Sequence record: MZ234025.1
Reading direction: 5' to 3' (one strand)
Length of the DNA: 64,000 nt
Origin: Escherichia phage vB_EcoM-172859UKE1
Positions 2,513-60,706 of the stretch are shown piece after piece (the stretch's first letter is position 1; each line of letters begins with the position of its first letter). Under the pieces are notes generated by a model. It saw only the letters and a program-made list of their open reading frames with translations, was not told the DNA's origin and did not search any database. The translations under genes were made by a program, and so were the position numbers.

Positions 2513-2571
2513 GTTTACATCTTCCTCTAGGCATGATATGATGAACTTACCCCAACCAAGAGGAAAACATT

Positions 2572-2946: not shown

Positions 2947-2996
2947 GTTTACTTCTCCAGTAGTTGTGTTATTATAGACCTATCAACTACTGGAGA
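2947..2996 (+). promoter_or_regulatory. Early sigma70-type promoter embedded in stem-loop (GTTTAC 2947-2952, TATTAT 2970-2975)
   Basis: 17-bp spacer; perfect 13-bp inverted repeat tctccagtagttg / caactactggaga flanks the -10. Confidence 0.6.
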
Positions 2997-3001
2997 ACAA
3001 A

Positions 3002-4258: not shown

Positions 4259-4300
4259 GTTTACATTATAGATGGACTATAGTATAGTAGTCCTATCAAA
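4259..4300 (+). promoter_or_regulatory. Early promoter in stem-loop (GTTTAC 4259-4264; ggactat/atagtagtcc imperfect inverted repeat around -10)
   Basis: Same atagtagtcctatc cassette recurs at 24882 and 25392. Confidence 0.55.
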
Positions 4301-4317
4301 TCAACTAAGGAGTTAAA

Positions 4318-4611
4318 ATGAAAAAGTTATCATTGGCAGCAATCTTACTTGCAGTATCATGTGCACCGGCTCCAGTTACGGCAGGTTATGATAAAGACCT
4401 CTGTGAGTGGTCAATGACTGCAAATCAAGAAGATGTTGAACAACAAATCTTCTCTGATATCATGAACATCACTAAACGAGACCGTCCTAATATGGTTAAT
4501 AAAGTTGTTGAACAACTTAAGTCTGGCGGTAACATGCAGTACAACTATGTTTTGTATTGTGACCCTAATTTCGATAACAAAGATATCGTAACCGAAATCA
4601 CAGGTGAATAA
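4318..4611 (+). CDS. sp: Spackle periplasmic protein (superinfection exclusion)
   Basis: Signal peptide plus GYDKDLCEWSMTA...GGNMQYNYVLYCD matching T4 Sp (97 aa) as recalled. Confidence 0.85.
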   Translation: MKKLSLAAILLAVSCAPAPVTAGYDKDLCEWSMTANQEDVEQQIFSDIMNITKRDRPNMVNKVVEQLKSGGNMQYNYVLYCDPNFDNKDIVTEITGE

Positions 4612-7205: not shown

Positions 7206-7293
7206 AATATCTCCTTAGTTACCTATTATTTATTACGCTTTATAAAATTAATGTTAGAATTAACTCTCTTATACTGAATTGAAAGGAAAAATA

Positions 7294-9272: not shown

Positions 9273-9453
9273 TATGGACCTTATGAGTATGTTTGACGAG
9301 CCTGAAGTTGAGGCTCCTAAAGTGCATCGTAGTGAACTTGTTGATGAACTAGATAGTATTATACAACGACACGGCTTTAGTTTACCTGTTGAAGCCCTGA
9401 AAGACCTTGCATCTTATTATGACGACCCTCCACCATGGAGTCCTTGGAAATGA
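9265..9453 (+). CDS. hypothetical protein (62 aa)
   Basis: ORF overlapping previous stop. Confidence 0.35.
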   Translation: MNNMDLMSMFDEPEVEAPKVHRSELVDELDSIIQRHGFSLPVEALKDLASYYDDPPPWSPWK

Positions 9454-9669
9454 AAGAGAAATTGAAAGAGAAATTCTTACTAGAAATCAAGGAAAAAGAC
9501 TTTGAGACATGGTATCGAATGGTGAAAGGGCTGACATTGCTTTTTAAAGCATCGTTATTCATGTTAGAACAACCTGGTCCTGATGGGCCTTTAGTAGGAA
9601 AGCTTAAAAAGTAGTTTACATTCCCTCCTCTCGTGTTATGATAGGCTTATCTTTAAATGGAGGTCTATC

Positions 9670-10251
9670 ATGACATGTCAATCTGAACTTCAAGAACGCG
9701 AATACCTAACAAATCTGATTGATAGCAAATTCACCCGCCAAGAACAAAACATTCTCTGGGCCTGCACCGATTCTAAGGAAGACCCGGATTTCCACTATGA
9801 ATTAGACCATCTTGTTCGTAAGCATATGACTTCTACAGTGCCAGTAGAACTCTACCGTGGTGTAACTCCAGAAGAAGTAGAACGTCTTTCCCTTCTTTCT
9901 GTGGGATGCCATTGGTCTCCTGGACGAGTAACATCGTTCACAACTGATTTCAGTACAGCTCGTCAATTCTCCGGGAGATGGGAATATCAGACGTACACTA
10001 TTCTTAGTCTCAGGAATGCTCCATTCATTTTTGATTACTACCAAAACATGGTTAACATTGTACTTGCCGGAAAGAACCCTAAGCATGTTATGGAAGAAAC
10101 GCGTGTTGACGTCCTAGATATGATTGAATCTGAACAAGAATACATGGTCTCAGGTATCTCTAGATTTGAGATTGTGGAAATTGAAGAGTTAGAGTATGAC
10201 CCTTTGTCTCGAGTATACAAAATCATTCACTTAAAGATGTTGAATTTTTAG
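9670..10251 (+). CDS. ADP-ribosyltransferase, ModA/ModB family (paralog 1)
   Basis: R-S-E class motifs: YRG, STxxS-like FTTDFS, E-x-E (EQEY); tandem with a paralog; T4 synteny (modA/modB near dda). Confidence 0.6.
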   Translation: MTCQSELQEREYLTNLIDSKFTRQEQNILWACTDSKEDPDFHYELDHLVRKHMTSTVPVELYRGVTPEEVERLSLLSVGCHWSPGRVTSFTTDFSTARQFSGRWEYQTYTILSLRNAPFIFDYYQNMVNIVLAGKNPKHVMEETRVDVLDMIESEQEYMVSGISRFEIVEIEELEYDPLSRVYKIIHLKMLNF

Positions 10252-14132: not shown

Positions 14133-14162
14133 GTTTACAACCAAGGACGGTTGGAGTATAAT
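14133..14162 (+). promoter_or_regulatory. Early promoter cassette GTTTACAACCAAGGACGGTTGGAGTATAAT
   Basis: GTTTAC 14133-14138 and TATAAT 14157-14162; near-identical cassette at 14689 and 60653. Confidence 0.65.
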
Positions 14163-14192
14163 CTTTCTATCTTAACCAAACGGGAAACAATT

Positions 14193-14688: not shown

Positions 14689-14719
14689 GTTGTACATCCA
14701 AGGATGGATGGAGTATAAT
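14689..14719 (+). promoter_or_regulatory. Early promoter cassette GTTGTACATCCAAGGATGGATGGAGTATAAT
   Basis: TATAAT 14714-14719; paralog of cassette at 14133. Confidence 0.6.
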
Positions 14720-14748
14720 GAATTCAATTTAACAAAGAGAGAAAAATT

Positions 14749-15204
14749 ATGATTACTATTGGTGAAATTAAGCGTGTATCAACTGCATCCCGGTCTAAAG
14801 CCGCAGGTCGTCTGGTTGAAGTGGTAGGACTTCGCACAAATGGCATGGGACGCATTAAAGAAGTTAAAGTTCGAATCATTCCTAGTTTTGGACGTCAGGA
14901 TACTCAGCACGCTTACGTAAGTCCTAAATTCTTGGAAACTCCTGTGAGCGCTCATTTTGCTTCTACTGAACCTAATGCACAGTTCAAATGGGCCTTGTGT
15001 AAAGGTGTTGAATTCCAGACTGATAAAGAATTTGACTTCATCGATGAATACGGTTATCCAAGCAAAACTGATACTATGTGCGGCTTCATTAGTGACCAAT
15101 GGGTTGAAGATGGTGAAAAGTTATACAATATCGTATTCTTAGGTGACTTCCGAGTTGTTAAAGAATCTGAAATCACTCGTTATGTGTCTCCTCGTAAAGC
15201 TTAA
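14749..15204 (+). CDS. hypothetical protein, tandem paralog family member 2
   Basis: VSTASRSKAAGRLVEV... and C-terminal GFISDQWVEDGEKLYNIVFLGDF shared with next gene. Confidence 0.55.
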   Translation: MITIGEIKRVSTASRSKAAGRLVEVVGLRTNGMGRIKEVKVRIIPSFGRQDTQHAYVSPKFLETPVSAHFASTEPNAQFKWALCKGVEFQTDKEFDFIDEYGYPSKTDTMCGFISDQWVEDGEKLYNIVFLGDFRVVKESEITRYVSPRKA

Positions 15205-15213
15205 GGAATTATT

Positions 15214-15633
15214 ATGAATATTGTAAATCTCTCTACAGGTGATTACGTATATGTATCTGTTGCTTCTCGCTCTAAAGTTGCCGGGAAGTTGGTTGAAGTT
15301 CTTTCTGTGAGTGATCCGGTTTTTGGTCGTAACCAAGTTAAAGTTCGTGACGCCGATGGTAACATTGGTTACGTTAAAAGCCAATTTATTGAACCAGAAG
15401 AAAAAGCGTTCAAATGGAAACTGGGCAGATCAGTTTTAGTTGTAAAAGACTACGAGTTCACCATTGCCGCTGCGACAGATGGAACACCGTGGACAACGAA
15501 TCAAGTTGCTGGTTTTATTTCGGACCAATGGGTGGAAGATGGTGTTAAGCTTTATAACATTGTTTTCGCTGGGCAGTTCATGGTAGTTCCTGAGTTCCAA
15601 ATCAAAAAATATTGTCCAGCATCTTTTGCATAA
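15214..15633 (+). CDS. hypothetical protein, tandem paralog family member 3
   Basis: VSVASRSKVAGKLVEV... and GFISDQWVEDGVKLYNIVFAGQF. Confidence 0.55.
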   Translation: MNIVNLSTGDYVYVSVASRSKVAGKLVEVLSVSDPVFGRNQVKVRDADGNIGYVKSQFIEPEEKAFKWKLGRSVLVVKDYEFTIAAATDGTPWTTNQVAGFISDQWVEDGVKLYNIVFAGQFMVVPEFQIKKYCPASFA

Positions 15634-15637
15634 AGTT

Positions 15638-15666
15638 GTTTACTTCTCCTCCGGTTTTGATATTAT
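15638..15666 (+). promoter_or_regulatory. Early promoter (GTTTAC 15638-15643, TATTAT 15661-15666)
   Basis: 17-bp spacer; ggtt..aacc inverted repeat around -10. Confidence 0.55.
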
Positions 15667-15692
15667 AACCATATCAACCAGAGGAGAATAAT

Positions 15693-16217
15693 ATGTTAGT
15701 TTACCGCGTAGAACGTAGTTTTTGTACTCAACGTGAATCATTACCAGGAATTGCTATCGAAGATGGTAAAGCCGTCAGAATTTGGGAAACCTCTTGGAAT
15801 AAAGAACCTCGTTCGCCGTATGGTTGGTCGGGCACCGACAACTCTGAAGAAACATGGGAGTTCCTTGATAAGCATGGAATACTCTCAGGTAACTTCTACC
15901 ATCACGGCGACAACTATAATGTCCCTAATCGTCCTACAGTAAATGAAGACAAACTCCTTGAACAAAATATCTTAAGATACTATAGAATTGAGCACACATT
16001 TGAATTGAGTGAAGATTGGGCTCAAGGGTTCTATTTTGGATTTGAAAGTGTTGACGCGGTTTATGCATGGTTTGATGACCAGGTGGATGTTGAACTCTTG
16101 AAAGCTAAAGGATACTACATCGCGGTCTATGAAGCACCTGATTTCATCCTCGGAAGTTGTCAATTAATGTTTAGACGTTCATTGGCAGAACAAGTTGATT
16201 TTATTTTGCTAAAATGA
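15693..16217 (+). CDS. hypothetical protein (174 aa)
   Basis: ORF with SD cagaggagaataatATG. Confidence 0.5.
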   Translation: MLVYRVERSFCTQRESLPGIAIEDGKAVRIWETSWNKEPRSPYGWSGTDNSEETWEFLDKHGILSGNFYHHGDNYNVPNRPTVNEDKLLEQNILRYYRIEHTFELSEDWAQGFYFGFESVDAVYAWFDDQVDVELLKAKGYYIAVYEAPDFILGSCQLMFRRSLAEQVDFILLK

Positions 16218-16274
16218 TGTACAACAACTATGGTCTATGATACTATAGACCTATCAAAACAAGAGGAGAATATT

Positions 16275-24027: not shown

Positions 24028-24050
24028 GGGGACTTCGGTCCCCTTTTTTC
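24028..24050 (+). terminator. Terminator ggggacTTCGgtcccc + T6 after rIIB
   Basis: Perfect hairpin, UUCG loop, T run. Confidence 0.75.
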
Positions 24051-24856: not shown

Positions 24857-24886
24857 GTTTACAACTAAGTAGGACTATGATATAGT
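24857..24886 (+). promoter_or_regulatory. Early promoter in stem-loop (GTTTAC 24857-24862, TATAGT 24881-24886)
   Basis: aggactat...atagtagtcct inverted repeat. Confidence 0.6.
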
Positions 24887-24912
24887 AGTCCTATCTAAAA
24901 GAGGATAACATT

Positions 24913-25368: not shown

Positions 25369-25398
25369 GTTTACATCAAGGTAGGATTATGGTATAGT
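25369..25398 (+). promoter_or_regulatory. Early promoter in stem-loop (GTTTAC 25369-25374)
   Basis: aggattatggtatagtagtcct cassette. Confidence 0.55.
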
Positions 25399-25426
25399 AG
25401 TCCTACTGAAACATGAGGAACACAAA

Positions 25427-25627
25427 ATGGCTAAGCTTTTTAAAGATGTTGAAATTGGTGAAAAATTTGTCCTGAATAATGGTCAGCAGCTTATTCGTGT
25501 AGCTTCTATCGCCGGACAAACTCATAACTGTATCGCCCCAACGTGTTGGACTCGATTCTTTATTGAAGATGACACTGAATGTTTAACTGTTGAAGAGCTT
25601 TTTGAACGTTCTGATATAGCCGAATAA
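25427..25627 (+). CDS. hypothetical protein (66 aa)
   Basis: SD catgaggaacacaaaATG. Confidence 0.45.
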   Translation: MAKLFKDVEIGEKFVLNNGQQLIRVASIAGQTHNCIAPTCWTRFFIEDDTECLTVEELFERSDIAE

Positions 25628-25629
25628 AA

Positions 25630-25666
25630 TTGTACAAACTCTTGAGAGCAGAGTATAATGCTCTCA
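25630..25666 (+). promoter_or_regulatory. Early promoter cassette TTGTACAAACTCTTGAGAGCAGAGTATAATGCTCTC
   Basis: TATAAT 25654-25659 inside gagagca/tgctctc stem; near-identical cassette at 53514. Confidence 0.65.
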
Positions 25667-25703
25667 TGGATTACAAAAACATTAATCAATTGAGGAAATT
25701 AGC

Positions 25704-26150
25704 ATGTCCAAATATTTAACTCGTAAAGACCTTCTGGCAGTTGGCGGTGAAGTTGTTGCAGTAGTTCGTAACGGCGAATACGGTTCTGAAGTTTCTAAAG
25801 AGTTTCGTTCTCGTGAAGGTTTTTACTTCTTTGTTAAAGGTTCATCTGATTGGCGACAAGTAGCAGCACGATTCTTTGTAGGACGTCAACGTTCTAAACA
25901 AGGGTTGGATGCAATTCTTTCTCACATTCGTCAAGGCCGTTCGCAACTAGCCCGTACTATGGGCACTAACAATATTGAATATGATGTAATCTTTGTTGCA
26001 GCTAAGAACATGAAACCACTGACCACTGGTTATGGTAAAGGTCAATTGACTCTGGCATTCACTCGCAACCATACATCAGAATATCAAACACTCACTGAAA
26101 TGAACCGTCTTCTGGCAGATAATTTCAAATTCATTCTGCAGAGTTACTAA
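25704..26150 (+). CDS. ndd: Ndd nucleoid disruption protein
   Basis: [11 protein letters not shown]...[14 protein letters not shown]...[20 protein letters not shown]...[11 protein letters not shown] matches T4 Ndd as recalled. Confidence 0.85.
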
Positions 26151-27936: not shown

Positions 27937-27965
27937 GTTTACATGTGCTTCAAACATGATATTAT
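27937..27965 (+). promoter_or_regulatory. Early promoter of motA (GTTTAC 27937-27942, TATTAT 27960-27965)
   Basis: 17-bp spacer; tattatagacctatc cassette. Confidence 0.6.
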
Positions 27966-28004
27966 AGACCTATCAAAACAAAACAACCGAATTGGAGAAA
28001 TAAA

Positions 28005-35834: not shown

Positions 35835-35852
35835 GGGAGACCGAAGTCTCCC
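35835..35852 (-). terminator. Hairpin gggagacTTCGgtctccc after gene 35 (minus strand)
   Basis: Same 18-nt palindrome as at 44161 and 59069. Confidence 0.6.
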
Positions 35853-44160: not shown

Positions 44161-44182
44161 GGGAGACTTCGGTCTCCCTTTT
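44161..44182 (+). terminator. Terminator gggagacTTCGgtctccc + ttttg after gene 32
   Basis: Perfect 7-bp stem, UUCG loop. Confidence 0.7.
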
Positions 44183-44660: not shown

Positions 44661-44722
44661 TGTACAACAAGATAGGGTTATGTTATAGTAGCCCTATCAA
44701 ATCAAAAGTGAAGGAGAATAAA

Positions 44723-44971
44723 ATGAGATTGCAACGACAGAGCATCAAAGATTCTGAAGTTAGAGGTAAATGGTACTTCAACATCGTTGGTAAAGACGCT
44801 GAACTCCTTGAACAAGCTGAAGAAGCTTTACGTGAAATGGGTTGGAACGAAGAATGTGACGGATGTCCACTCTACGAAGATGGTGAAAGTGCAGGATTCT
44901 GGATTCACCACTCTGATGTTGAATCGTTTAAAGCTGATTGGAAAGTTGTTAAGAAAAATCTGAGGAAATAA
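44723..44971 (+). CDS. hypothetical protein (83 aa)
   Basis: ATG 44723 after gaaggagaataaa; ORF-track start 44660 precedes the promoter. Confidence 0.45.
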   Translation: MRLQRQSIKDSEVRGKWYFNIVGKDAELLEQAEEALREMGWNEECDGCPLYEDGESAGFWIHHSDVESFKADWKVVKKNLRK

Positions 44972-44973
44972 TT

Positions 44974-46660
<1,687 letters not shown>

Positions 46661-46915: not shown

Positions 46916-47002
46916 CGCTTCAGTTTAAAAGTGTATAATAAATTAACGGGATAAATACTATCCCGTTTGGAGTAATGTCTATCAACCTATACTGAGGAAT
47001 AT

Positions 47003-49258
47003 ATGCAAGTAACTAAGAGCAGTGGTGTATCCCAAAATTTTGATGCACAGAAAATTATTCAAGTCTTAACTTGGCAATGTGAAGGAACACAAATTGACCC
47101 ATATGAATTGTACGAAGAAATTAAGACCCATCTTGTCGATGGGATGAGCACCAAAGATATTCAGAAGATTTGTATTAAAGTTGCAGCTAACTCGATTTCT
47201 GTCGAAGAACCTGATTATCAGTATGTCGCCGCCAAAGGGCTAATGTTTGCACTTCGTAAAGATGTATATGGGCAGTTTGAACCGCCTGCTTTTATCGACC
47301 ATATTTCTTATTGTGTTAATGAAGGCAAATATGACCCTGAGCTGTTGTCTCAATATTCAGCAGAAGAAATCATTTATCTCGATTCACAGATTAAACATGA
47401 ACGAGACTTTGACCTGACTTATGCTGGTGCTATGCAGCTTAAAGAAAAATATCTAGTTAAAGATAAAACAACTGGGAAGATTTATGAAACTCCACAGTTT
47501 GCTATCATGGCTATTGGCATGGCCTTACACCAAGACGAAACTCATGACCGTTTGAAACATATTATTCGTTTTTATGATGCCGTTTCTACTCATCAAGTTT
47601 CATTGCCAACCCCAATTATGGCAGGTGCTCGTACTCCAACTCGCCAGTTCTCTAGTTGTGTAGTTATTGAAGCCGGTGATTCGTTAAAATCTATTAACAA
47701 AACTTCAGCATCAATTATTGAATATATTTCTAAACGAGCTGGTATTGGTATCAACGTTGGTATGCTTCGTGCAGAAGGTTCTAAGATCGGTATGGGTGAA
47801 GTTCGACATACGGGTGTTATTCCATTCTGGAAACATTTCCAAACTGCAGTAAAATCTTGTTCTCAAGGTGGTATTCGTGGTGGTGCTGCTACAGCGTATT
47901 ATCCGATGTGGCACTTAGAAGTAGAGAACCTATTAGTTCTGAAAAATAACAAAGGCGTGGATGAAAACCGTATTCGACATATGGACTACGGAATTCAGAT
48001 TAATGACCTCATGATGGAACGCCTTGGTAAAAATGATTATATTACTTTATTTAGCCCTCACGAAATGTCAGGCGAACTATACTACTCGTTCTTTGAAGAT
48101 CAAGATAAATTCCGTGAGCTTTATGAGAAAGCTGAAAAAGACCCAACAATCAGAAAGAAAAGAATCAAAGCACTAGAACTCTTTGAATTGTTCATGACTG
48201 AACGTTCTGGTACTGCTCGAATTTATCCACAGTTTGTTGATAACACGAATAACTACACTCCATTTATTCGTGAAAAAGCTCCAATTCGTCAGAGTAACTT
48301 ATGTTGTGAAATCGCTATTCCAACTAATGATGTGAATGGTCCTGATGCTGAAATTGGTTTATGCACATTATCTGCTTTTGTATTGGATAAATTTGATTGG
48401 CAAGACCAAGATAAAATTAATGAACTTGCTGAAGTACAAGTACGTGCACTTGATAACCTGTTAGACTATCAAGATTATCCGGTTCCAGAAGCTTTAAAAG
48501 CTAAAAAGCGTCGTAATCTTGGTGTTGGTGTTACGAACTATGCTGCATGGTTAGCTTCTAACTTTGCTTCATATGAAGACGCTAACGATTTGACTCATGA
48601 ATTGTTTGAGAGATTGCAATATGGCCTTATCAAAGCTTCAATCAAACTCGCCAAAGAAAAAGGATGTTGCGAGTATTATTCAGACACTAAATGGTCTAGA
48701 GGCGAATTACCTATCGACTGGTACAATAAAAAGATTGACCAAATCGCAGCCCCGAACTACGTCTGTGACTGGGAAGAACTTCGAGCTGAACTCAAAGAAC
48801 ATGGAATTCGTAACTCAACGTTGTCTGCACTCATGCCTTGTGAGTCAAGCAGTCAAGTATCAAACTCTACAAACGGGATTGAGCCCCCACGTGGTCCAGT
48901 AAGTATTAAAGAATCTAAAGAAGGCAACTTCCGTCAGGTTGTTCCTAATATAGAACATAACACGAGTCTTTACGACTACGCGTGGAAACTTGCTAAGAAA
49001 GGTAATAAACCTTATTTAACCCAAGTTGCTATCATGTTGAAATGGGTGTGCCAATCTGCTTCTGCTAATACTTACTACGACCCTGCAGTATTTGAGAAAG
49101 GTAAAGTGCCAATGTCAGTAATGCTTGACGATCTGCTTTACTTCTGGTACTTTGGCGGAAAAAACCTCTACTATCATAACACTCGTGATGGGTCAGGTAC
49201 AGATGACTACGAATTAGAAACACCTAAAGCTGAAGATTGTTCTGCTTGTAAGCTTTAA
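47003..49258 (+). CDS. nrdA: ribonucleotide reductase class Ia large subunit
   Basis: 751 aa; ATP-cone N-terminus; C-terminal CxxC... Confidence 0.95.
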   Translation: MQVTKSSGVSQNFDAQKIIQVLTWQCEGTQIDPYELYEEIKTHLVDGMSTKDIQKICIKVAANSISVEEPDYQYVAAKGLMFALRKDVYGQFEPPAFIDHISYCVNEGKYDPELLSQYSAEEIIYLDSQIKHERDFDLTYAGAMQLKEKYLVKDKTTGKIYETPQFAIMAIGMALHQDETHDRLKHIIRFYDAVSTHQVSLPTPIMAGARTPTRQFSSCVVIEAGDSLKSINKTSASIIEYISKRAGIGINVGMLRAEGSKIGMGEVRHTGVIPFWKHFQTAVKSCSQGGIRGGAATAYYPMWHLEVENLLVLKNNKGVDENRIRHMDYGIQINDLMMERLGKNDYITLFSPHEMSGELYYSFFEDQDKFRELYEKAEKDPTIRKKRIKALELFELFMTERSGTARIYPQFVDNTNNYTPFIREKAPIRQSNLCCEIAIPTNDVNGPDAEIGLCTLSAFVLDKFDWQDQDKINELAEVQVRALDNLLDYQDYPVPEALKAKKRRNLGVGVTNYAAWLASNFASYEDANDLTHELFERLQYGLIKASIKLAKEKGCCEYYSDTKWSRGELPIDWYNKKIDQIAAPNYVCDWEELRAELKEHGIRNSTLSALMPCESSSQVSNSTNGIEPPRGPVSIKESKEGNFRQVVPNIEHNTSLYDYAWKLAKKGNKPYLTQVAIMLKWVCQSASANTYYDPAVFEKGKVPMSVMLDDLLYFWYFGGKNLYYHNTRDGSGTDDYELETPKAEDCSACKL

Positions 49259-50926: not shown

Positions 50927-50955
50927 TTTACATACCACAAGGATTGTGGTACAAT
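50926..50955 (+). promoter_or_regulatory. Early promoter (GTTTAC 50926-50931, TACAAT 50950-50955)
   Basis: 18-bp spacer upstream of rnlA. Confidence 0.5.
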
Positions 50956-50971
50956 TTAAAAAACTAACTGA

Positions 50972-52105
<1,134 letters not shown>

Positions 52106-52167
52106 TGGTTTACAAACACCAAGGATGGTGTTACTATGGCTTTTATCAACAACACGAGGAGAAAATT

Positions 52168-53012: not shown

Positions 53013-53299
53013 TTAAATTAATCGCAGTTGTATTATCTATTGGCATTTTGGCTGGATGTGCCCAGGATGTGCCCTTAAGCCCTAAAGAAACTTTACATCC
53101 GCCATGGCCTGAATCTATTGTTGAATATAACCAGAAATGGCAAGTAAAGGTTATTGATGGTAATCCATGGGTTGGAATGCCATTTGAAGACTCTCAAGAA
53201 TTTCGTATCTGGTTAAACGACGTAAAAAGATATGTACATGACCAGAAGACTATGTTATGTTATTATCGTAGTGGTTTAAAAGAGGAAAAATGCCAATGA
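53009..53299 (+). CDS. putative lipoprotein (lipobox LAGC)
   Basis: MIKLIAVVLSIGILAGCAQ. Confidence 0.5.
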   Translation: MIKLIAVVLSIGILAGCAQDVPLSPKETLHPPWPESIVEYNQKWQVKVIDGNPWVGMPFEDSQEFRIWLNDVKRYVHDQKTMLCYYRSGLKEEKCQ

Positions 53300-53514
53300 C
53301 TAAAGAACAGCATGAATACATTAAAGGGCTTATCTATGAATCTGAAATGGCGGCTATGATTTATGGGCGCCAGATTCAACGATTAGAATCTTTGCCTCCG
53401 ACTAATGACCGCTTGTTAGTTCAGTCTCGTGCTAATCTGAAAAATGAATATCAGAATAAGTGGGCAGTAGCGACTAAAGCTCTTCATGAGTATATTGAAT
53501 CTTTAGTAAAATAG
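53290..53514 (+). CDS. hypothetical protein (74 aa)
   Basis: Overlapping start with previous gene. Confidence 0.4.
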   Translation: MPMTKEQHEYIKGLIYESEMAAMIYGRQIQRLESLPPTNDRLLVQSRANLKNEYQNKWAVATKALHEYIESLVK

Positions 53515-53560
53515 TTTACAAACTCTCGGGAGCAGAGTATAATGCTCCTATGGATAATTG
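53514..53560 (+). promoter_or_regulatory. Early promoter cassette GTTTACAAACTCTCGGGAGCAGAGTATAATGCTCC
   Basis: Near-identical to cassette at 25630; -10 inside stem. Confidence 0.65.
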
Positions 53561-53571
53561 AGGAAATCTAA

Positions 53572-53870
53572 ATGAAAACATTACTAGAGAATTACATCAA
53601 ACGGTCTGATGAGTATATTGATATCTGCCGTGGAATGTCACTTGTCAATTATGACAAAGATGCAGCAAAGGCACTAGATGAAGCAGGTAAAGCTCTTCGT
53701 AAAGCTGCTAAAGAAAAAGGGTTGGATTTGCAACAACTCAAAAGTCATATGATTAAATTTATTTCTTCAAACGTTAGAAGTACGTCAATTAATAAAAACG
53801 TCGCTGAAATTAATAAAGACCGGCGAGAGCATAACATTCGTATTCTTGAAACTTTCTTAGGAATAAAATA

Positions 53871-53871
<1 letters not shown>
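53572..53871 (+). CDS. hypothetical protein (99 aa)
   Basis: SD attgaggaaatctaaATG. Confidence 0.45.
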
Positions 53872-54957
<1,086 letters not shown>

Positions 54958-55637: not shown

Positions 55638-55697
55638 TGGTTTACAACATGGTGGAGTTGTGATACTATAACTCTACCAACAAATGAGGAAATAGAA

Positions 55698-59068: not shown

Positions 59069-59090
59069 GGGAGACTTCGGTCTCCCTTTT
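59069..59090 (+). terminator. Terminator gggagacTTCGgtctccc + tttt
   Basis: Identical palindrome to 44161. Confidence 0.65.
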
Positions 59091-59566: not shown

Positions 59567-59606
59567 GTTTACTTTGGTACAGGTTATGTTATTATAGACC
59601 TGTACC
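59567..59606 (+). promoter_or_regulatory. Early promoter in stem-loop (GTTTAC 59567-59572, TATTAT 59590-59595; ggtacaggt/acctgtacc)
   Basis: Perfect 9-bp inverted repeat flanks -10. Confidence 0.6.
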
Positions 59607-59636
59607 AACAAACAACTTAAACATCTGGAGAATAAA

Positions 59637-60037: not shown

Positions 60038-60652
60038 ATGTTTAAAGTTAATACTTTTTATAAAATGAATTTTAAAAATGGGGATATTACTCCACGCCTT
60101 AAAAACATGTTCTCATATGACCTTATTGAGCCTTTTGAAGTTTTAGAAGTTACTGATGCCGGCTCAGTTTGTGAAATTAGAACTTCTGAAGGTAAAATTT
60201 ATCAGGCCGGTGTTGGTAAATTCAGTAATTGTTTTACTTTAATATTCTCGACCGATTTAGATGAGCATTTTATTGAATGTCCTAACCCTAAGGTCTATGA
60301 AGTTCCACATCAAGAAACTAAGAAAAATGGACCGCACGAATATACGAAGGTTGAAACTCCTCACGGCGTGATGTGGCGACATAACTCTCCTTTTGGAAGT
60401 AAAGGAACATTTGCTCAACTGGCTAAGCCCTACGACGATGAAAAATATGTAGTAGTCCTTTTATCTGAACAGGGTACTCAAGACCGTGGATGCCAGCGTT
60501 CCGGTTTATTGAGTGAACTCGAAGCTCATAACCTAGCACGTGAATTCGTTGAGAAAAATCCTGGTTCTGAAGCTCTAGTCATGAAAGCAATTACTCAATA
60601 TATCACTGCTCAACCTGTTGTTCATCCGGTAGAAATTAATTTCATTAAGTAG
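60038..60652 (+). CDS. hypothetical protein (204 aa)
   Basis: ATG 60038 after ctgaggaaatt; ORF-track start 60008 lies within the hairpin. Confidence 0.5.
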   Translation: MFKVNTFYKMNFKNGDITPRLKNMFSYDLIEPFEVLEVTDAGSVCEIRTSEGKIYQAGVGKFSNCFTLIFSTDLDEHFIECPNPKVYEVPHQETKKNGPHEYTKVETPHGVMWRHNSPFGSKGTFAQLAKPYDDEKYVVVLLSEQGTQDRGCQRSGLLSELEAHNLAREFVEKNPGSEALVMKAITQYITAQPVVHPVEINFIK

Positions 60653-60682
60653 TGTACATCCAAGGACGGATTAGAGTATAAT
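60653..60682 (+). promoter_or_regulatory. Early promoter cassette GTGTACATCCAAGGACGGATTAGAGTATAAT
   Basis: Paralog of cassettes at 14133 and 14689. Confidence 0.6.
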
Positions 60683-60706
60683 GATTTCTTTAGTAAGTGG
60701 AAAAAT

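Follow-up and report, generated by a model that had tools for sequence, protein, structure and literature searches.

The locus upstream of ndd in a 64,000-nt stretch of Escherichia phage vB_EcoM-172859UKE1 (MZ234025.1; hereafter the window, meaning the whole stretch analysed) raises the question of why a promoter should carry its -10 box inside an inverted repeat, and why nearly the same arrangement should recur far away, in the pseT region, in front of a different gene. The two sites (copies 1 and 2, or the focal pair) are probably paralogous copies of one T4-type early (host sigma-70) promoter cassette family, and the 8-bp helix round their -10 box is under selection, being kept by compensatory substitutions. 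The window shows 97-99% identity to Mosigvirus genomes, including SSE1, HX01 and JS09, and its source is, judging from this likeness, an RB69/JS09-like Mosigvirus. The early genes lie on the + strand, running from uvsX and gene 41 to rIIA, rIIB, denB, ndd, ac, gene 52 and motA; tail-fibre genes follow motA on the opposite strand, and the later part of the order is rnh, gene 32, frd, td, nrdAB, denA, rnlA, alc, pseT, cd, gene 31 and rIII.

All + strand intergenic gaps were listed, and a total of 28 early-promoter-like sites were then curated by sequence match alone, with a -35 box, a 16-18-nt spacer, a -10 box, a Shine-Dalgarno sequence (SD) and an ATG as criteria. These 28 candidate early promoters lie within 53.6 kb of early DNA, most of them ahead of small open reading frames (ORFs) of unknown function. 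Given their likeness to the early promoters of T4 and the 57 early promoters predicted in RB69, where hairpins were not mentioned (Nolan 2006), the sites presumably fire as early promoters.

The two copies and their hairpins

An earlier reading of the window, made from the letters alone (the sequence-only reading), had quoted the two sequences as near-identical promoter-in-stem-loop cassettes. Both are present where it had placed them, at 25630-25671 (copy 1) and 53514-53555 (copy 2), and comprise the following features:

25628..25703, + strand: whole intergenic cassette of copy 1, from the stop of the 66-amino-acid (aa) ORF 25427-25627 to the ndd ATG at 25704
25631..25659, + strand: candidate early promoter of copy 1, with -35 TGTACA (25631-25636), 17-nt spacer and -10 TATAAT (25654-25659)
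25643..25666, + strand: hairpin of copy 1, TGAGAGCA (25643-25650) / 8-nt loop GAGTATAA / TGCTCTCA (25659-25666)
53515..53571, + strand: whole cassette of copy 2, from the TAG (53512-53514) of ORF 53290-53514 to the ATG at 53572
53515..53543, + strand: candidate early promoter of copy 2, with -35 TTTACA, 17-nt spacer and -10 TATAAT (53538-53543)
53528..53549, + strand: hairpin of copy 2, GGGAGCA (53528-53534) / GAGTATAA / TGCTCCT (53543-53549)

The last T of TATAAT takes part in the closing pair of the helix, and the five bases before it are inside the 8-nt loop; the placing of the -10 box in the loop of a gagagca/tgctctc-type stem is confirmed for both copies. In copy 1, outer pairs (CUC...GG) lengthen the helix to 25640-25670; in copy 2, the outermost pair is G.U in the window and A-U in SSE1 and in metagenome copies. 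The sigma-70 consensus is matched at 10/12 positions by copy 1 and at 11/12 by copy 2, each being the best sequence match of its neighbourhood, and a TG extended -10 element is absent from both. Upstream of the -35 box, a stop codon lies in an A/T-rich stretch (gaaTAAaatTGTACA in copy 1, gtaaaaTAGTTTACA in copy 2). Downstream, the SD ATTGAGGAAAT and then the ATG follow (25704 and 53572, respectively); the hairpins end 37 nt (copy 1) and 22 nt (copy 2) 5′ of the ATG, leaving the SD unpaired.

Copies 1 and 2 are the most alike of the 378 pairs that the 28 promoters form, agreeing at 24/28 non-hexamer positions (11.7 ± 3.5 among window promoter pairs), which is 3.5 standard deviations over the background. 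The motif search and the RNA folding proposed by the sequence-only reading bore it out. In particular, these two were the only window sites matched by a degenerate 31-mer, and likewise by a 37-mer whose stem positions were left free, with 0 expected from shuffles, and the hairpins folded at -13.9 kcal/mol (copy 1, z -3.26) and -12.2 kcal/mol (copy 2, z -2.57), both below shuffles. The likeness runs on to the SD, broken by one 19-nt indel. The gene after copy 2 is a 99-aa ORF of unknown function (phrog_2364), whose product shows no similarity to Ndd in protein comparison; the repeat is therefore confined to the cassette, and gene duplication was excluded as its source. No Rfam family was matched in the whole window at the gathering threshold.

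Selection on the helix

Variants for the covariation analysis came from DNA-pattern scans of viral and metagenome contigs, blastn against phage genomes and fetched records; a protein-based search for related loci yielded three for Ndd and one for the 99-aa ORF, near-identical and too few for covariation. In the alignment of the 11 distinct variants of the focal family, 97.7% of cells were standard-paired, and 4 of the 8 pairs had changes on both sides, with a covariation score reached by 0/500 shuffles. Slid registers, taken as a control, paired in only 35-53% of cells, or 33-53% with the pooled set below included. When the family was pooled, in the same register, with the AGNCCTAT promoters, 94.3% of cells were paired and changes on both sides appeared in 6/8 pairs (17 cells). 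In two promoter families unrelated in sequence, the helix axis has the same fixed position, on the first TA of the -10 box. Moreover, the non-Watson-Crick standard pairs of the focal family are all G.U or U.G on the + strand (8/8), which points to a structure read on the coding strand, most simply as RNA.

The cassette family in other phages

A blastn search with the copy-2 cassette matched a total of 731 phage records, with 3-4 places per genome among the close Mosigvirus records listed. The family precedes at least six different genes in three genera (Mosigvirus, Dhakavirus and Tequatrovirus). A T4 member of it, TTTACAAACTCTTGGGACCAGAGTATAATGGTCCC, lies directly upstream of motB; its hairpin has 13 bp, its -35 box is of the GTTTAC type, and the stretch ahead of it is A-rich. 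The stems and the genes next to them were as follows:

T4: GGGACCA : TGGTCCC, upstream of motB
Other Tequatrovirus: GGGACCA : TGGTCCT, upstream of motB
Dhakavirus IME281: GGGACCA : TGGTCCT, upstream of 55.2
Window copy 2: GGGAGCA : TGCTCCT, upstream of the 99-aa pseT-region ORF
SSE1: AGGAGCA : TGCTCCT, upstream of the 99-aa pseT-region ORF
ESCO47: GGGAGCA : TGCTCCT, upstream of pseT itself
Window copy 1: GAGAGCA : TGCTCTC, upstream of ndd
Metagenome contig L027, left: GGGAGCA : TGCTCCC, upstream of a 114-aa ORFan
Metagenome contig L027, right: GGGGTCA : TGACCCC, 3′ of the same 114-aa ORFan

At ndd, the orthologous promoter of Dhakavirus IME281 (L039 415-506) has different arms, CGAGAATCAT/ATGGTTCTCG, and a terminator-like GC hairpin with no promoter is found in Tequatrovirus teqskov (L040 430-503) and a Karamvirus (L041 437-506). 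An early promoter in a hairpin thus stands before ndd in Mosigvirus and Dhakavirus but not in these two phages, and the cassette was therefore gained or lost before a conserved gene.

Pairing across the promoters of the window

The best uninterrupted helix between each spacer and its own downstream segment was compared with those formed with the segments of the other 27 promoters. The mean helix score over the 28 promoters was 6.73 for own partners vs. 5.19 for swapped ones (permutation p<5e-5), and scores of at least 7 were reached by 10 of the 28 own pairs vs. 7.7% of the swapped pairs. Furthermore, the RNA from -35 box to ATG gave a mean z of -1.6 against dinucleotide shuffles (t-test p 1.4e-4), with z below -2 in 9/28, while leaders taken from the predicted start (7 nt past the -10 box) folded at about 0 kcal/mol. 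Overall, pairing comparable to that of the focal pair was found in about half of the promoters, with the 3′ arm at the start-site region or the SD; about 14 candidates had strong pairing and 5 more a small hairpin inside the spacer.

Three layouts were distinguished, all with the 5′ arm ahead of the predicted start. A hairpin round the -10 box occurs at 4260, 16218, 24858, 25370, 25631, 44661, 53515, 55641 and 59568, its 3′ arm ending 18-37 nt 5′ of the ATG with the SD free; a preference for the sense strand was seen only in this layout (8/9). The spacer pairs with the SD at 2514, 2948 (14 bp), 9615 and 15639, and a small hairpin lies inside the spacer at 14134, 14691, 50927, 52109 and 60653. 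Beyond the focal pair, these sites are:

4260..4317, + strand: hairpin round -10, GGACTAT / GTAGTCC
16218..16274, + strand: hairpin round -10, GGTCTAT / ATAGACC
24858..24912, + strand: hairpin round -10, GTAGGACTAT / GTAGTCCTAT, z -2.7
25370..25426, + strand: hairpin round -10, GGTAGGATTAT / GTAGTCCTACT, z -2.8
44661..44722, + strand: hairpin round -10, GATAGGGTTAT / GTAGCCCTATC, z -4.6
55641..55697, + strand: hairpin round -10, TGGTGGAGTTGT / ATAACTCTACCA, z -4.8
59568..59636, + strand: 11-bp perfect hairpin round -10, TTGGTACAGGT / ACCTGTACCAA, z -3.2
2514..2571, + strand: spacer TTCCTCT pairing with SD AGAGGAA, with a UUCG-loop terminator ahead
2948..3001, + strand: spacer pairing with SD region, TTCTCCAGTAGTTG / CAACTACTGGAGAA, 14 bp, z -6.2
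9615..9669, + strand: spacer CCTCC complementary to SD GGAGG
15639..15692, + strand: spacer pairing with SD, TTCTCCTC / GAGGAGAA, plus GGTT/AACC, z -5.4
14134..14192, + strand: hairpin wholly in the spacer, AACC aaggac GGTT
14691..14748, + strand: spacer hairpin, ATCCA agga TGGAT
50927..50980, + strand: spacer hairpin, ACCACA aggat TGTGGT
52109..52167, + strand: spacer hairpin, ACACCA agga TGGTGT; ACGCCA in ESCO47, where the A-to-G change gives a G.U pair
60653..60706, + strand: variant with an 18-nt spacer

The cassette at 25370 and copy 1 bracket the 66-aa ORF 25427-25627. The same pairing pattern is present in ESCO47, where the counterpart of 15639 pairs through other bases (TTCTCCTCTAG / CTAGAGGAGAA). 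It also appears at 4 of 10 candidate early promoters of T4 (MT984581.1), including those before dmd, motB.2 and motB. In this genome, a 15-bp helix encloses the -10 box at dmd (about 20597), the spacer pairs with the SD at motB.2 (about 8203) and the -10/start region pairs with the SD at modA.2 (about 13171); the reviews searched do not mention a promoter-embedded helix design at these three promoters.

Cassettes at the edges of gene gain and loss

The sequence-only reading had also proposed that the cassettes mark the boundaries of shuffled accessory ORFs. Cassettes make up 4.1% of the early DNA; of the 22 collinearity-break edges against ESCO47, they hold 8 (binomial p 1.6e-6). Two segments that ESCO47 lacks have a cassette at either end. 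The segments concerned are:

2520-2966 (447 bp, with ORF 2572-2946): absent from ESCO47, bounded by the cassettes 2514 and 2948
14699-15638 (940 bp, with two MotB-like paralogues): absent from ESCO47, with the -35 box of 14691 at one edge and that of 15639 at the other
53579-54059 (481-bp indel vs. ESCO47): left edge at copy 2

As ESCO47 is without the last segment, its cassette stands directly ahead of pseT. These edges are where homology ends and not necessarily crossovers, because the spacers of ESCO47 are unlike those of either window cassette.

Upstream of motA, HX01 and NBG1 have two near-identical cassettes flanking a 71-aa ORF (NBG1 CDS 4308-4523), while the window, like SSE1, has a single one:

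27938..28004, + strand: single cassette upstream of motA

The window cassette is a hybrid, its left part being that of the left cassette and its ATG-proximal part running into motA; a crossover inside the shared ggagaaataaaATGtctaaa block would be expected to produce just such a hybrid.

Some further differences between the genomes may be added. Of three consecutive ORFs in the window, ESCO47 has only the last, a 174-aa ORF (15693-16217) annotated there as a transcriptional regulator; the two before it, the tandem MotB-like ORFs 14749-15204 and 15214-15633 (phrog_1671), are missing from ESCO47. The segments 44957-45200 and 60039-60698, also absent from ESCO47, have their edges at SD/ATG microhomologies (e.g. 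gaggaaat..ATG) and not at promoter boxes; recombination between neighbouring genes through their similar ribosome-binding sites could account for this. Most differences between the window and SSE1, its closest relative, come from homing-endonuclease ORFs and not from promoter cassettes; three such ORFs of SSE1 (at 7287, 42483 and 46967-47024) are lacking or shorter in the window. A 503-bp difference from SSE1 (9714-10216) was considered as a PeSL-type deletion (PeSL, promoter-early stem-loop) and rejected, both edges being inside ORF 9670-10251. The product of this ORF, which lies 5′ of the gene annotated as RNA polymerase ADP-ribosylase, is one more ADP-ribosyltransferase paralogue of the ModA/ModB type (phrog_832). 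The 503 bp are deleted from the SSE1 version of the ORF, and ESCO47 has neither this ORF nor ORF 9444-9614.

Mechanism and rival explanations

The explanation that we consider likely, taken as a whole, is that of a PeSL-type early-promoter cassette with an insulating hairpin formed in read-through RNA only, whose homology underlies the shuffling of genes. Each copy comprises an upstream stop in an A-rich stretch, a -35 box of the form T[T/G]TACA, a 17-nt spacer, TATAAT, the start region, the SD and the ATG, and complementarity between the spacer and the bases just past the -10 box places this box in the loop of an 8-13-bp hairpin. Transcription is predicted to start about 7 nt past TATAAT. Because the 5′ arm lies upstream of that predicted start, the hairpin would form only in read-through RNA and not in the transcript of the promoter itself, whose mRNA would have an unstructured leader. 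In read-through RNA, the hairpin would mark the end of the upstream unit and may act as an insulator, either by attenuation or by protecting the 3′ end of the upstream mRNA; at the SD-paired promoters, it would mask translation of the downstream ORF. Furthermore, the common cassette sequence would offer enough homology for phage recombination, by which the ORFs between cassettes may be deleted, inserted or swapped.

Several observations weigh against this explanation. No U-tract follows the focal hairpins (tails uggauuac and auggauaa; 0-3 T in the 8 nt past each stem) and a terminator scan of the + strand did not call them terminator-like; termination is not supported by the sequence for lack of this tract, and the terminator reading of these hairpins was dropped. 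Translational masking does not apply to the focal copies either, because their hairpins stop short of the SD, 22-37 nt before the ATG. Notable pairing is absent from about half of the 28 promoters, it is lost in some orthologues (e.g. the ESCO47 counterpart of 2948), and folding energies of sense and antisense strands do not differ over all 28 promoters (Wilcoxon p 0.89). Moreover, the boundary claim, borne out by the ESCO47 edges and the motA event, fails for SSE1, where 0/10 indel edges fall inside cassettes (the differences being homing-endonuclease ORFs, one intra-ORF deletion and one divergent stretch), and for copy 1, at which the genome comparisons gave no indel edge. A cassette is present in 25 of the 41 intergenic gaps, so that the enrichment beyond a mere tendency of indels to end between genes is modest. 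Finally, the literature searched gave no mapped transcription starts, either for the sequence upstream of T4 motB or for any Mosigvirus.

The actual terminators of the window stand apart from these hairpins; they are GC-rich, have a UUCG loop and end in a run of T. Seven such UUCG-tetraloop hairpins, which fit GGNNNCTTCGGNNNCC, were found vs. 0.02 expected, at 2490-2505, 44162-44177 and 59070-59085 (+ strand), at 35836-35851 (- strand) and also at 24028, 27896 and 60010. Four of the seven are an identical 16-mer (GGAGACTTCGGTCTCC), three of these lying 10-50 nt 5′ of an early promoter (terminator-then-promoter pairs 2490/2514, 44162/44211 and 59070/59124). The nine hairpins enclosing a -10 box occur only at promoters without a separate upstream terminator, a suggestive but not significant pattern.

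Among the other explanations, convergence would hold that both sites are near-optimal strong early promoters and that the inverted repeat is a by-product of the consensus. T4-type early promoters do have an extended consensus past the -35 and -10 boxes (Hinton 2010; Nolan 2006), and unrelated promoters of the window are already 42% identical outside the hexamers. However, the agreement of the focal pair lies far over that background and includes the SD context, pairing falls away in slid registers, and the stem positions vary in compensated pairs only, which is unexpected under selection on the promoter sequence alone; with contig L027 also carrying two family members on the flanks of one ORFan, convergence appears very unlikely. 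Discrimination at the level of translation, in which RNA started upstream folds and leaves the downstream ORF poorly translated or coupled while locally started RNA stays open, has more in its favour. The spacer is complementary to the SD at 2514, 2948, 9615, 15639 and T4 motB.2 (up to 14 bp), the ESCO47 orthologue of 15639 preserves its pairing through other bases, leaders from the predicted start are unstructured, and T4 e, soc, 49 and I-TevI provide a precedent (PMC3014915). Nevertheless, the focal and the other -10-enclosing hairpins leave the SD free, 18-37 nt from the ATG, and the intra-spacer hairpins are unable to mask it, which makes this explanation unlikely for the cassettes as a whole.

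A structure acting in DNA, as a cruciform or single-strand hairpin that aids open-complex formation or as a target of recombination or of a structure-specific nuclease that creates shuffling hot spots, would agree with the fixed position of the helix axis in two unrelated promoter families, and some mini-circle crossovers were mapped within the stem-loop (Arbiol 2010, PMC2839356). On the other hand, the G.U wobbles would be A.C mismatches on the other strand, although a cruciform requires the pairing of both, and pairing of spacer and SD across 30-40 nt is sensible in RNA and not in DNA. In addition, cruciform extrusion is poor for 7-8-bp stems with 8-nt loops, and a DNA-level role is thus held to be quite improbable. 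Lastly, the twofold symmetry centred on the -10 box would suit an operator at which a dimeric phage protein shuts the early promoters off, all the more as the shut-off mechanism of T4 early promoters is described in the literature as unknown (Hinton 2010; PMC3014915). Such a dimeric-repressor operator was rejected: the arms covary and their sequence is not conserved (GAGAGCA, GGACTA, GGTGGAGTT, TTGGTACAGGT). As only complementarity is kept, which is the signature of nucleic-acid pairing and not of a protein site, there is hardly any likelihood left for it.

A wider version of the read-through hairpin, in which the helices would be a subfamily-wide RNA device marking the origin of transcripts and not terminators, with each early gene read from an open leader when its own promoter is used and insulated in read-through RNA, by a hairpin ending the upstream unit or by a masked SD, is put forward tentatively and is rather doubtful. 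If true, the marking of transcript origin, described so far for a few late or middle promoters only (PMC3014915), would apply as a general rule of design to the early regions of Tevenvirinae, with their dozens of tandem promoters, and would explain the co-evolution of spacers with start-site and SD sequences.

Relation to known systems

The sequence-only reading had likened the cassettes to the PeSLs of T4-type phages, and every defining feature of these at the level of sequence is present. Assignment of the focal cassettes to the PeSL type is thus supported, with a putative function for the hairpin. PeSL stem-loops fall into five positional subclasses, overlap with the -10 box being among the two commonest (Arbiol 2010, PMC2839356), and cassette homology is the recombination substrate in the PeSL model (PMC2839356, PMC4122927). 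Terminator activity and mini-circles were shown for the PeSLs of RB49 and phi1 (PMC2839356). The focal cassettes share with the latter the A/T-rich stop, the sigma-70-like promoter, the stem-loop between or over the boxes, the SD and the ATG, as well as the repetition before small accessory ORFs, at indel edges of close relatives and in cassette-ORF-cassette units. Unlike them, the focal family belongs to Mosigvirus, with relatives in Tequatrovirus and Dhakavirus, its -35 box is T[T/G]TACA instead of TTGACA, and its stems are not poly-G/poly-C. The PeSLs of PST/T4 and nt-1/KVP40 (Comeau 2014, PMC4122927) come from the same subfamily and have promoters of the TTTACW...TAYWAT type, and their terminator-then-promoter layout is also that of the three such pairs of the window. 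However, their stem-loop lies just 5′ of the promoter, whereas the focal ones enclose the -10 box and lack a U-tract. The plasticity of the ndd region was cited in that work (ndd.4/.5 vs. ORF268/269).

As regards the early promoters of T4 (Pe), the focal copies resemble them in sequence, through the GTTTAC-type -35 box, the A-rich UP-like region and TATAAT, and differ in having no TG extended -10 element and other downstream genes; reviews of Pe give extra consensus positions and do not describe a conserved helix (Hinton 2010). The promoters of T4 e, soc, 49 and I-TevI (PMC3014915) also lie in a hairpin whose 5′ arm is 5′ of the start, so that long transcripts alone fold, and the window promoters 2948, 15639, 2514 and 9615 pair spacer and SD in their sequence in the same way; these T4 promoters are late (or middle) ones masking the SD/AUG, whereas the focal ones are early and their hairpins do not reach the SD. 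Intrinsic terminators are likewise stable hairpins soon after a stop codon, but the focal ones have no U-tract after them.

Evidence from covariation and from coding-strand G.U pairs for the stem, which the original PeSL papers lack, is newly added here, together with the rule that places the 5′ arm ahead of the start site and the link to the T4 motB-upstream sequence. PeSL-type cassettes are thereby extended to the RB69/JS09 group, with one family standing before unrelated genes in three genera, in support of a guiding role for short regulatory cassettes when T4-like phages gain and lose genes. Moreover, the question arises of what role a hairpin without a U-tract plays at the junction of two early transcription units. 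In annotation, the cassettes serve as reliable markers of early-gene starts and of likely indel sites in the genomes of therapeutic phages.

Other promoter groups of the window

Two further cassette families had been proposed by the sequence-only reading. The second is exact at 14141 and 14698 (the spacer hairpins at 14134 and 14691), while its copy at 60653 is off-pattern, with a 1-nt insertion and an 18-nt spacer, and is similar only. The third was found within 1-2 nt of all eight places given for it, but it is not a separate family, because AG(A/T/C)CCTATCAA is the consensus shared by the early promoters of this phage just 3′ of the -10 box; in a subset of them, the spacer is complementary to it. 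Finally, the five intra-spacer hairpins (14134-14162, 14691-14719, 50927-50955, 52109-52137 and 60653-60682) have a common SD-like loop, AAGGA(y), on stems that vary (AACC, ATCCA, ACCACA, ACACCA), and in the ESCO47 orthologue of 50927 the loop is altered to ATGGAC.

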